Source of the DNA: Candidatus Deferrimicrobiaceae bacterium
Lineage (GTDB): Bacteria; Desulfobacterota; Deferrimicrobia; Deferrimicrobiales; Deferrimicrobiaceae
Length of the DNA: 55,644 nucleotides
Direction of reading: 5' to 3'
Assembly: GCA_049688015.1 (NCBI GenBank)
Contig: JBAVJZ010000068.1
Span: 1-55,644 of the forward strand
The notes beneath the pieces were generated by a model. That model made no database searches, was not told the DNA's origin, and saw only the letters and a program-made list of their open reading frames with translations. Below, in pieces: positions 10,209 through 22,172 of this stretch (position 1 is its first letter; each line of letters opens with the position of its first letter). The position numbers and the translations under genes were made by a program.

Positions 10209-10856
10209 CTATTTCCCTTCACGGATCGATTCCAGCGCGGCCAGGATCTCCTCGATATCCATCCGTACGGTGTGATCGGGGTCCGCCACGCCCGCCCGGA
10301 CCACCCCCTGCCCGTCGAGAACGTAGGTGGCGGGAACGGGAAGCTCCCACCGGCCGTCCCCGTTGTGTTTATCGAGGTTGATCCCGAACTTGTCCCGGTA
10401 GAGCTCCTTGATCTCCTGCGGAACCGCAAACCAGAGGCGGTACTTCTTGAGCACTTCGCTCCTGGCGTCGCTCACCACGTCGATCGGAATGTTGTGCTTT
10501 TCCGCCATTGTCAGGGTGAAGTCGGGAAGTTCCGGACTTACGGCGATCAGGTCCGCCCCGAAGGACCGGATTTGCGGTAGTGCCTTGGCCAGAGCTGCCA
10601 GCTCCAGGTTGCAGTACGGTCACCACTCTCCGCGATAGAACGAGAGAACGATCGGCCCCGAGGCAAGGCGGTCGGCAAGATGCACGGTCTTCCCCACCTG
10701 GTTCGGGAGAGTGAAATCCGGCGCCCTCTCCCCGACAAGTAATCCCGCCGCCCCGGAAGCCCGGATGCTCTCGACCCCCCGCTTCATCGTCGCCGCGATC
10801 TCCGGGGGAATCTGCCTTCCCGCCTTGAACTGCGTGATCTGTTCCGAAAGTTTCAT
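10209..10856 (-). CDS. peroxiredoxin-like (AhpC/TSA, PRX_like2-type) selenoprotein, UGA at 10620..10622 read as Sec
   Basis: ORFs 10620..10856 and 10209..10508 are in the same frame. The first ends '...IVLSFYRGEW' + TGA. Read-through gives 'PYCNLELAALAKALPQIRSFGADLIAVSPELPDFTLT' and joins 'MAEKHNIPIDVV...' with no further stop. The TGA occupies the first Cys of the family's W-C-P-x-C motif. GGGAGGG RBS precedes the ATG at 10856. Confidence 0.8.
10589..10607 (-). promoter_or_regulatory. candidate bacterial SECIS hairpin for the Prx-like selenoprotein
   Basis: RNA CUGGAGCU-GGC-AGCUCUGG forms an 8-bp stem (2 G-U pairs) with a G-containing apical loop. It starts 13 nt 3' of the UGA. Confidence 0.5.
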
Positions 10857-19080: not shown

Positions 19081-19977
19081 TTACCTCTTGCCGCCCTTGG
19101 CCGCCGACCCGATAAGCTTCGGCCGGGCGGCTGCGGCTTTCCCCGTTGGTTTCCGGTAGGTCACGATGCGGCCCCAGGTGCTTTTCGTTCCCCAGATGCC
19201 GGATCGCAGACATTCCAGCTGGACTACCTGGGAATGGTCGACGAACAGGTTGACGTCCGGGCCGAAGTTCTTTATGTACCAGCTGAATACCTCGGGGTCG
19301 GCCGCCTCGAACATCACCTTGTCCAGCCCGAGCTCGTTGACGATCTTCGCGACCACGTCCGTACGCCAGCTCCGGACGTTTTCGGTGATCCCTTCCGATT
19401 CCACCATGATGAGGTGTGCGCCCGCATCCAGGTACCGCCTGGCGGCCCGGATCGCCTGGGACGGATCGATGGTCCCTTCCGCCTCCAGCTCCTCTACGGA
19501 GCTTGCGCCCCCGGCGCCGAACTGGATGCCGATCTCGGGCTTCGCCTTCATGCCGAGTTCGTGCACTCTATCGACGATTCCCACCAGGTCGTCCAGGGGT
19601 ACGCTGATGAAGCCGCTGGACACCTCCACGACGTCGAACCCCATCTCCCGGCACTCCTCGAGGTAGCGATCCACCATCCCGGGGCCGTGTGTCAGCACCC
19701 GCTCGATGAATCCCCCGGTGGACACCATCACGTCGTGCTCGTGGCAAACGCCGATCAGGTCCTTCACCGCCTGCGTGGGCATCAGGGAAAAGGACCCCCC
19801 GCTGAACTTGAAGATGTCGACAAACGCGCCCATGGTCTCGAAGATGTCTTCCAGGTACCGTTTCCCGACGGGCGCGTAGTACGGTCCGCGCATCTCCGTG
19901 ATCCCGGTGGTGCGCGGTTTCCGCCCTCTCTCATTTATAGGAAGAAACCCGAAGCTGCGATCGAATGAATGTTCCAT
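19081..19977 (-). CDS. phosphosulfolactate synthase (ComA) family protein
   Basis: 'GFLPINERGRKPRTTGITEMRGP', 'VDIFKFSGGSF', 'GFDVVEVSSG', 'IMVESEG' match the ComA TIM-barrel family. The ATG at 19975..19977 has an AAGGAGG 8 nt upstream. The ORF-track ATG at 20001 has no SD. Confidence 0.8.
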   Translation of the reverse strand: MEHSFDRSFGFLPINERGRKPRTTGITEMRGPYYAPVGKRYLEDIFETMGAFVDIFKFSGGSFSLMPTQAVKDLIGVCHEHDVMVSTGGFIERVLTHGPGMVDRYLEECREMGFDVVEVSSGFISVPLDDLVGIVDRVHELGMKAKPEIGIQFGAGGASSVEELEAEGTIDPSQAIRAARRYLDAGAHLIMVESEGITENVRSWRTDVVAKIVNELGLDKVMFEAADPEVFSWYIKNFGPDVNLFVDHSQVVQLECLRSGIWGTKSTWGRIVTYRKPTGKAAAARPKLIGSAAKGGKR

Positions 19978-20064
19978 TCCCCCACCCTCCTTCCGTTCCA
20001 TCTTTGCCGGTCATGGTTCCCCGTTGTCATACAAGCTTCCTTCTCCTATTAAGATGATTTCCTG

Positions 20065-20161: not shown

Positions 20162-20833
20162 TTATCGAAGGGGTTCGATCAGGGCCGGCGTATCCTTTTT
20201 CGGGTTGTTCACTGCGGTCCCGACGGGAAAGACGGTCATCTCCTCCGGGGGATAGGGATGAAAGAGGGTCGCAAGCGCCTCGAGGTCCTGCACGGCAGGC
20301 GAAAGCCAGAGGGCGTAATCCCGCGGAGAAAGGATCACGGGCATCCGGTCGTGGATCGGCCGGAGGAGATCGTTCGGAACGGTAGTGAGAATCGTGCACG
20401 ATTCGACCGCTGCGTGTTCCGGCCCCGCCCAGGATTCCCACAACCCCGCGAACGCGAAGATCGCGCCGTCTTCCAGGCGGATGTAGTACGGCTGTTTCCT
20501 GCCGTTTACGCGTTTCCATTCGTAGAAGCCGTCCGCCGGGACCAGGCATCTCCTTCGCCGGATCGCCGATCGGAAGGCGGGCTTATCCGCTACCGTCTCC
20601 GCACGCGCGTTGATCATCCGGTTGCCTATGGCGGGATCTTTCGCCCAGGAGGGAACGAGCCCCCAGCGAAGCGGAACGAGCTCCCGCTCTCCCCCTCCCG
20701 GCGGAATCCGCACCGCGGACACCATCTGGGAAGGAGCGATGTTGTACCGCGGGGAGAAGGACGGCGTATCCGGCAGACCGAACCTCTCGGCCACGGAATC
20801 GGCAGAGTCGAAAAGCGTGAAGCGCCCGCACAT
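20162..20833 (-). CDS. SOS-response-associated peptidase (SRAP/YedK family, abasic-site crosslinking)
   Basis: N-terminal 'MCGRF' with catalytic Cys2; 'RYNIAPSQ', 'LRWGLVPSWAKD', 'MINARAETV', 'PADGFYEW'. Confidence 0.9.
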   Translation of the reverse strand: MCGRFTLFDSADSVAERFGLPDTPSFSPRYNIAPSQMVSAVRIPPGGGERELVPLRWGLVPSWAKDPAIGNRMINARAETVADKPAFRSAIRRRRCLVPADGFYEWKRVNGRKQPYYIRLEDGAIFAFAGLWESWAGPEHAAVESCTILTTVPNDLLRPIHDRMPVILSPRDYALWLSPAVQDLEALATLFHPYPPEEMTVFPVGTAVNNPKKDTPALIEPLR

Positions 20834-20869: not shown

Positions 20870-21280
20870 TTACCTTGTCTTTTCCGTCGGATACCCGGCG
20901 GAGACCCATCCGTACCAGCCTCCCTTCAGGGCATACACCTTCCCGAAGCCGAGACTTTTCAGCCTGAGCGCCACCCGGGCGCTCGTTGCCTCGTCGACTC
21001 AGGAGCAGTAGAGGACGATCTTCTTGTCCTTCGGGTATTTCGGGGCCCAGTTCGAAACGTTTTCGGGGTCTTCGTACACCGACCCCGTGATCCTTATCGG
21101 AGCGTTTCCCCCGCCTAAACGGACGTCGAGGATGACGACTTCCGGGCTGCCCAGAAGCGTTTTCAGCTCCTCCTTCGTCATTCTGGGAACATCGTCCCCA
21201 CCCGCCGCGACCACCGGTGCCTGCCAGGCGAAAATCCCTGCAAGCACGGCGACGATCAGCGCACCCAGTATCCGCTTCAT
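20870..21280 (-). CDS. secreted single-domain rhodanese selenoprotein, UGA at 20999..21001 read as Sec
   Basis: ORF 20999..21334 ends '...KKIVLYCS' + TGA in the rhodanese active-site loop. Read-through gives 42 more codons, 'VDEATSARVALRLKSLGFGKVYALKGGWYGWVSAGYPTEKTR', then TAA at 20870..20872. This completes the C-terminal half of a rhodanese domain. Signal peptide 'MKRILGALIVAVLAGIFAWQAPVVAA'. ATG at 21278..21280 with a GGGAGG RBS. Confidence 0.8.
20966..20984 (-). promoter_or_regulatory. candidate bacterial SECIS hairpin for the rhodanese selenoprotein
   Basis: RNA GAGCGCC-CGGGU-GGCGCUC forms a 7-bp perfect stem with a GGU-containing apical loop. It starts 15 nt 3' of the UGA. Confidence 0.6.
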
Positions 21281-21373
21281 GAACCGACCTCCCGTATTCG
21301 TCCGATACTTTTTTTGGAGCGGAAAACCGGCCACCGGGTTTCCTCCGCAGGATTCGGACGTCCTGCTGCGTTC

Positions 21374-22012
21374 CTATATCTTGCGGATGAGATATACCCC
21401 GTCCCGTACGGGGAGCATCACCTTCTCGACCCGGTCGTCGCTCATCACTCTGCGGTTGAAGGATACGATAGCCCGGGAATCGCCGTCTTCCGGGGAGAGA
21501 ACCCGTCCGTACCAAAGCACGTTGTCGGCGGCGATCAGCCCCCCGCCCCGGAGGATCCGGACGCTTTCCTCGTAATAATGGGAATAGCCCCCCTTGTCGG
21601 CGTCGATGAAGACAAAATCGACGCTCCCGTCGGGGACCCCGCGCAGCGTCTCGGCGGCGGGACCCAGGACAAGGCGGATCTTTCGTCCGTGCGGGCTTCT
21701 GTCAAAGTACTTCCGGGCGATGGTGGCGTACTCCTCCGAGACCTCGCACGTAACAAGCTCCCCGTCCGCAGGGAGACCTTCCGCCATCATGAGTGCGGAG
21801 TACCCGGTGAAGGTCCCGATCTCCATCACTTTCCTCGCCCCCGAGAGCTTGACCAGCATGCGGAGGAAGGCACCTTCGACACGGCCGGTCAGCATCCCGG
21901 GGTGGCCCGTCCGCTCCCGCGTCTCCCGATCGAGTTCCTCGAGAAGGGGCGACACGGGACCGACATGCTTCTCGACATAGCGCCTCAGGTCTTCGGGAAG
22001 AAACATTTCCAT
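21374..22012 (-). CDS. class I SAM-dependent O-methyltransferase (caffeoyl-CoA OMT-like)
   Basis: 'VMEIGTFTGYSAL', 'DFVFIDADKGGY', 'GGLIAADNVLW'. ATG at 22010..22012 with an AAGGAG 7 nt upstream. Confidence 0.85.
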   Translation of the reverse strand: MEMFLPEDLRRYVEKHVGPVSPLLEELDRETRERTGHPGMLTGRVEGAFLRMLVKLSGARKVMEIGTFTGYSALMMAEGLPADGELVTCEVSEEYATIARKYFDRSPHGRKIRLVLGPAAETLRGVPDGSVDFVFIDADKGGYSHYYEESVRILRGGGLIAADNVLWYGRVLSPEDGDSRAIVSFNRRVMSDDRVEKVMLPVRDGVYLIRKI

Positions 22013-22172
22013 GCGGATCTCCTTTCCCCTCCCCACCGGGGACACTCCTATATCGGATTGTACGTCGAGGGGTGTCCCCGCAAACACGATACAATGAAAC
22101 CGGCCCACATCGACTCGGGTGGGAACCTTTTTTCTCCCCGGGGACCGCTGTCAAGGAGGAAGAAGCGGTTCC

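Follow-up and report, generated by a model that had tools for sequence, protein, structure and literature searches.

The window analysed in this work, a stretch of DNA of 55,644 nucleotides, is contig C68 of a 2.5-Mb assembly that consists of 212 contigs and is rated 100% complete. On its minus strand the window carries a rhodanese gene with a product predicted to be exported, and the in-frame TGA by which this gene is interrupted is almost certainly read as selenocysteine (Sec). We are highly confident that this is a genuine selenoprotein gene, i.e., that it encodes an exported single-domain rhodanese of the LYCAU/CxU family (NF041203) with UGA decoded as Sec. The initial annotation had already taken the product for a rhodanese selenoprotein that is exported, contains a Cys-x-Sec loop and depends on a SECIS hairpin, and homologues, sel genes and profile searches now support it. 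The family has been known since 2005 and is described by a curated model, and the case presented here is thus an annotation correction and not new biology.

Gene structure and completion of the rhodanese domain

The complete coding sequence (20870..21280, minus strand, stop codon included) starts with an ATG at position 21280, 7 nt downstream of a Shine-Dalgarno-like GGAGG (21288..21292), and ends with the true stop TAA (20870..20872); all three elements can be read directly from the sequence. When TGA is translated as U, a protein of 136 amino acids with Sec at residue 94 is obtained. The frame opens with MKRILGALIVAVLAGIFAWQAPVVAAGGDD, continues to KKIVLYCS and there encounters the TGA (21001..20999). 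The initial annotation had let the open reading frame stop at this TGA and had extended it by 42 codons to the TAA; its coordinates proved to be correct throughout, and the 42 codons gained by read-through, VDEATSARVALRLKSLGFGKVYALKGGWYGWVSAGYPTEKTR (VDEATS...PTEKTR), which run up to the TAA at 20872..20870, agree exactly with our translation. An example of a C-terminal peptide from the read-through part of the rhodanese is GGWYGWVSAGYPTEK.

The N-terminus looks like a Sec-type signal peptide, and export of the protein is predicted on the basis of its sequence. The putative signal peptide spans residues 1-26 (21203..21280, minus strand) and comprises MKR, a hydrophobic core and VAA followed by GG. 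Its presence had already been suggested in the initial annotation, and a hydrophobic N-terminal stretch is indeed kept in 58 of the 58 evaluable homologues, while a lipobox-like motif is found in about 10. In the AF2 model, the N-terminus appears as a low-confidence helix (residues 3-17) followed by disorder.

The rhodanese domain itself occupies residues 35-127 (20900..21178, minus strand), as defined by Pfam PF00581 and by a pLDDT of at least 93 in the AF2 model. The read-through protein matches positions 1-101 of the 102 positions of the Pfam Rhodanese profile (48.3 bits, E 1.5e-12). The truncated 93-aa form matches positions 1-69 only and, with 21.4 bits, falls under the threshold of 22.2. 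The extension had been described as exactly the absent half of the rhodanese domain, and the profile search, in which read-through completes the Pfam model, shows the same.

A search of protein databases returned 238 relatives, nearly all of them about 93 aa long, gene callers having truncated them at one and the same point. In a collection with one genome per species, 559 loci with a relative were found, and codons were compared in the best 80 of these 559 loci. TGA is present at the same codon in 81 of 81 related gene copies that could be registered in these 80 loci from genomes of other species, plus the window's own copy, and in all 81 the frame downstream of the TGA is open, conserved and ends at a homologous stop. 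The homologues therefore do not truly terminate at the TGA. The closest relatives are labelled uncultured delta proteobacterium, Candidatus Deferrimicrobiaceae and 'Deltaproteobacteria CSP1-8'. The part of the protein past the TGA is under clear purifying selection: E97, S100, G111, A117, L118, G120, G121, W122, W125 and P131 are invariant in an alignment of 46 sequences with 45-95% identity to the window protein.

The SECIS hairpin, the selenocysteine machinery and the meaning of the TGA

The initial annotation had pointed to a 7-bp perfect GC-rich stem with the loop CGGGU at 20966..20984, and both the sequence and its predicted fold agree with this description. The bacterial SECIS hairpin, GAGCGCC-CGGGU-GGCGCUC (20984..20966, minus strand), begins with the 15th nucleotide past the UGA, i.e., after a gap of 14 nt, and sits in the codons for T-S-A-R-V-A-L; on its own it folds with -12.1 kcal/mol. 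The published bSECIS model, as quoted in PMC13188914, asks for a loop of 3-9 nt with a G at its first or second position, an upper stem of 4-16 bp, a UGA-to-loop distance of 16-37 nt and an MFE of at most -7.5 kcal/mol. The window hairpin conforms to all four constraints of the model, having a 5-nt loop with a G at position 2 followed by another G, a 7-bp stem, 21 nt between the UGA and the loop and a folding energy that is likewise within the limits. A scan of the region against Rfam gave no bacterial SECIS family and a sole match, to wcaG, that is due to chance (E 1.2), and a promoter and terminator scan of the region yielded nothing useful.

Taken by itself, the hairpin is weak evidence because the window has a GC content of 62% and such hairpins are common after TGA: 7.8% of all its TGA triplets have a comparable structure behind them at SECIS spacing, and the z-score of the local 71-nt fold is only -1.67, so that the single-sequence signal is not significant. 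The significance of the hairpin consequently rests on comparative data. We used 81 ungapped 63-nt segments beginning at the TGA, all of which have the hairpin in one register. The 5-bp core joins columns 20-24 to columns 30-34 and is intact in 404 of 405 cells, and in two sequences the core has been swapped entirely and is still paired (GUCUC/GAGAC and GUCUU/GAGGC). The observed covariation score was reached by none of 500 shuffles, and sliding the 3' partner by 1-3 columns lowered pairing from 84.5% to 21-48%. The hairpin overlaps the conserved codons T-S-A-R-V-A, and its conservation is partly protein-driven; for this reason, only covariation at synonymous sites can separate an RNA cause from a protein cause. 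Columns 21 and 33 provide such a case, since they fall on the third, synonymous position of a Ser (AGY) and of an Ala (GCR) codon: the pair is U-A in 49, C-G in 24 and U-G in 7 of the 81 segments and is broken in 1, and this covariation cannot stem from protein constraint.

The genes required for Sec insertion, the presence of which had been named as a check on the proposal, were found in the same genome, and all the matches are above curated cut-offs. They comprise tRNA-Sec on contig C171 (74.2 bits; reported by ARAGORN as tRNA-SeC with the anticodon tca), selA on C145 (550 bits), selB on C104 (315 bits) and selD on C153 (2214-3017; 323 bits). Since the selD match contains one in-frame TGA, its product is probably a selenoprotein as well, which is a known arrangement. 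TGA also remains an ordinary stop codon, indeed the commonest one, terminating 14 of the 29 long high-GC3 ORFs of the window, which implies that TGA has not been reassigned genome-wide.

Two other interpretations of the TGA have to be weighed against Sec insertion. If it were an ordinary stop, the gene would yield a 93-aa truncated rhodanese or be a pseudogene with an untranslated downstream part. Such an interpretation draws on the products of about 93 aa that public gene callers annotate for nearly all homologues and on TGA being the commonest true stop in the genome, but it leaves a product in which half of the fold is missing and which scores under the Pfam threshold, it does not explain why the downstream frame is under purifying selection in 81 of 81 copies up to a homologous end, and it is at odds with conservation of the TGA even between species whose proteins are only 45-50% identical, a pattern that a nonsense mutation would not give. 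Moreover, full-length members with Cys exist. In a phylum sample of 201 genomes, 41 matches above the NF041203 cut-off were found in 32 genomes; TGA is present in 39 of the 41, and the two TGA-free members have Cys instead, in the motifs YCDCPNEATSA (CDC; G081:C38) and YCSCDNEGTS (CSC; G150:C320). We therefore see next to no chance that the TGA is a plain stop. An assembly error was also rejected as the source of the TGA, which is conserved across many independent assemblies.

It is likewise very improbable that a standard amino acid, Trp or Gly, is inserted at the UGA in place of Sec, be it by read-through or by reassignment of the codon. A Trp does appear at the Sec position in the database homologues P0027, P0031, P0032, P0035 and P0037; however, P0032 and P0037, for which the DNA was looked up, translate in this way only if TGA is taken as W, the gene caller having switched to code 4 on these short contigs. 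Since these two 'W' records are artefactual (the DNA of the metagenome contigs L022, 199-630, and L024, 128-664, carries TGA), a Trp-type family or UGA-to-Trp decoding was discarded. For Gly there is a real GGA codon, but on a single 634-bp contig, one base off TGA and with the hairpin kept; this sequence (P0030; L023, 35-460) is taken as a rare mutant, i.e., a recent loss of Sec, or as a sequencing error, and Gly was not accepted as the ancestral state. Both amino acids are opposed by the use of TGA as a stop in the genome and by the second TGA at which many homologous genes terminate at the normal C-terminus, so that the codon means both Sec and stop within one gene. The complete Sec machinery and a covarying hairpin at SECIS spacing also argue against them, as does the natural replacement by Cys, a hallmark of Sec sites. 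The assignment of UGA 20999..21001 (minus strand) as Sec94 thus relies on the conserved TGA, on Cys replacement and on the Sec machinery.

Family membership and a possible role of the Cys-x-Sec loop

Within the NCBIfam equivalog NF041203, 'rhodanese_LYCAU', a rhodanese-related (seleno)protein, the window gene is nothing out of the ordinary. The read-through protein matches positions 10-125 of the 126 positions of the model with 141 bits (cut-off 115; E 1.5e-41), and the gene scored 133.5 bits in a six-frame search of the genome. The initial annotation had suggested comparison with a reported rhodanese-related selenoprotein family, and it is to this family that the gene belongs. In PMC13188914, CxU rhodaneses are catalogued as 'form 3' of the rhodanese selenoproteins, with credit to Zhang & Gladyshev 2005 (Bioinformatics 21:2580) for the first report. 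Elsewhere the family is listed among predicted selenoproteins the functions of which are not clear (PMC9312934), and a literature search on the CxU family found no experimental work, neither mass spectrometry nor 75Se labelling. The window protein shares with other members the L-Y-C-x-U motif, a signal peptide followed by one rhodanese domain, a SECIS hairpin at the same place and the kinds of organisms, which are mostly former Deltaproteobacteria, Nitrospirota and Methylomirabilota. It differs from them only in details, having CSU in place of the commoner CAU, lacking two residues of the 'DW' loop (GGG--NAP) and scoring 141 bits, compared with 160-184 bits for typical members. Such deviations fit a divergent lineage of the Deferrimicrobia-like kind.

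The AF2 model, for which 46 sequences were used, averages a pLDDT of 87, with values of at least 93 from residue 31 onwards, and its best matches in the PDB are rhodanese domains. It contains a strand at residues 87-91 (KIVLY), followed by C92-S93-U94 and a helix at 95-109. Cys92 (TGC, 21005..21007, minus strand) aligns with the catalytic Cys of solved rhodaneses, for instance with that of the ..FYC.. segment of 6mxv, and therefore takes the canonical catalytic position. The classical cradle C-x-x-G-x-[RST] is absent: the loop C-S-U-V-D-E-A-T-S is two residues longer than its counterparts such as C-G-G-G-F-R-S of 6mxv. The initial annotation had noticed that the loop does not fit the C-x-x-G-x-R pattern and had left the catalytic residue open; the alignment puts Cys92 at the catalytic position and Sec94 within the longer loop. 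Among the 81 copies the motif is C[ASTDKQN]U, with UxU in three; in the window protein it reads V-L-Y-C-S-U. Cys92 is invariant in alignment A3, being replaced by Sec in the UxU variants. Both positions are thus invariant chalcogens, with C or U at 92 and U, rarely C, at 94.

Comparison with other rhodaneses helps to place this loop. The other forms of rhodanese selenoproteins, namely UxxS (form 1), UxxG (forms 2 and 4) and TsoB (form 5, NF045694), have in common with the window protein the rhodanese fold and a Sec that belongs to the active-site loop or adjoins it. In UxxS and UxxG proteins, however, Sec stands in for the catalytic Cys itself, whereas the window protein keeps the Cys and has the Sec two residues later, and TsoB, a rhodanese/DsbD fusion with a UxxxxU motif, is matched only weakly (21 bits). 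GlpE of E. coli (1gmx) and Sud of Wolinella (1qxn), which represent the catalytic single-domain sulfurtransferases and carriers, share the fold, and their catalytic Cys aligns with Cys92. Sud is also periplasmic, the location to which export is predicted to bring the window protein. Unlike these two proteins, with which it is 18-23% identical, the window protein has no C-x-x-G-x-R/S cradle, a loop longer by two residues and a second chalcogen. The best structural match is the rhodanese-like domain of Alr3790 from Anabaena (3ilm, which leads the list, and 3k9r, 3hix and 2kl3), with ~30% identity, a TM-score of ~0.67-0.7 and the same D-E-x-T-S helix start. Alr3790 has G-A-G where the window protein has C-S-U, and hence no catalytic chalcogen; unlike the window rhodanese, its domain is cytoplasmic and part of a larger protein. 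ExtH of Geobacter was considered as a counterpart and rejected, being a different rhodanese of 49 kDa.

The following course of events may be proposed for the window gene, of which the decoding step is well supported. SelB and Sec-tRNA(Sec) decode the UGA at 21001..20999 as selenocysteine, being recruited by the hairpin that lies 14 nt downstream, inside the coding sequence, and the full 136-aa product is predicted to be exported after Sec insertion. Sec94, placed two residues after Cys92 at the N-terminus of the helix behind the central beta-strand, would then act as the nucleophile, and its candidate targets are sulfane sulfur, polysulfide, another chalcogen substrate or an oxidised partner. 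Cys92 would resolve the resulting adduct with formation of an intramolecular selenenylsulfide, and a periplasmic thiol-reducing system would recycle the Cys92/Sec94 pair.

Because positions 92 and 94 are both invariant chalcogens, a Cys/Sec pair is the most economical reading, and from these sequence features we estimate the chances that Cys92 and Sec94 act as a redox or sulfane-carrier pair outside the cytoplasm to be about even. Extended to the CxU family as a whole, the idea of an extracytoplasmic enzyme that forms a selenenylsulfide in redox chemistry or in carrying chalcogen, and that does not perform classical persulfide transfer, is tentative and somewhat doubtful; possible roles under such a reading would be the reduction of polysulfides and persulfides or the periplasmic handling of selenium or metalloids. 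The main alternative is a Sud-like sulfurtransferase or carrier of the classical kind, in which Sec is inserted and a single chalcogen, Cys92 or Sec94, carries the persulfide or selenopersulfide and the other plays no redox part. The fold and the positions of the DVR motif and of the catalytic Cys do match those of sulfurtransferases, and the sequence weakly resembles that of Sud (1qxn), a polysulfide carrier of the periplasm, but a single working chalcogen does not account for the invariance of both, the cradle of the classical enzymes is missing from the longer loop, and the nearest solved structure, that of Alr3790, has the same helix start and no Cys at all. On balance we consider this alternative rather unlikely. 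Should the extracytoplasmic redox or carrier role of the Cys/Sec pair be true, it would represent new biochemistry for a protein that is very widespread in anaerobes (559 loci), and biochemical study of any CxU member would be worthwhile.

The main value of the present analysis lies in annotation. Nearly all public gene calls for the CxU family either end after about 93 aa or have Trp for the Sec codon, and because of these truncated and code-4 gene calls the full-length CxU selenoprotein is invisible in most metagenome protein sets.

Genomic context and other selenoproteins

Nothing at the window locus, for instance a conserved operon, gives functional work a particular starting point. The neighbours of the rhodanese gene are genes for a SRAP peptidase (20162..20833), for an O-methyltransferase (21374..22108) and for ComA (19081..20001). 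Clustering of the ORFs of 80 loci with 3-kb flanks revealed no partner beyond close relatives (16 loci at maximum); with no neighbour conserved across the CxU family, the gene context gives no functional hint.

The window gene adds one more member to the selenoproteome of a small genome, which includes at least three rhodanese-type selenoproteins, one Prx-like protein and a predicted Sec-type SelD. The Prx-like gene is located in the window as well (10209..10856, minus strand) and encodes a thiol oxidoreductase selenoprotein with the motif W-U-P-Y-C (U79). The initial annotation had counted the rhodanese as the second UGA-recoded redox gene within ~10 kb, and this is borne out by the Pfam AhpC-TSA match, which extends across the TGA (positions 1-123 of 124, 97.5 bits). 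The Prx-like gene belongs to the known 'Prx-like thiol:disulfide oxidoreductase' (UxxC) family.

Two further rhodaneses with Sec were observed in the same genome outside the window. A paralogue on contig C130 (6662-7000, minus strand) combines a DedA/VTT membrane domain with a C-terminal rhodanese (Pfam VTT_dom and Rhodanese) and has the motif ..VFYCTU PGEATSA.. and a similar hairpin past the TGA; its NF041203 score, 99.5 bits, is below the cut-off. A rhodanese on contig C46 (11500-11790, minus strand) is of the UxxG form, with Sec at the position of the catalytic Cys (..TITYU-RSGVRS..), and continues at its C-terminus into a fused domain that is rubrerythrin-like (Pfam Rhodanese 80.5 bits, Rubrerythrin 39.6 bits).

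Some variation was also seen among the homologous loci. In the UxU variants (L044, L090 and L111, the last being G053:C16), the Cys at the catalytic position is encoded by TGA too (..LYUAU.., ..LYUTU..). Three such copies are present among the best 80 loci and one more in a genome of the phylum sample (G053), and they match the UxU rhodanese form described in metagenomes of Olavius symbionts (PMC1976440). At other loci, two CxU rhodanese genes, each with its own TGA and hairpin, lie 0.5-1.8 kb apart, as in L055 (3286 and 3734), L087 (2774 and 3250) and L101 (1446 and 3274).
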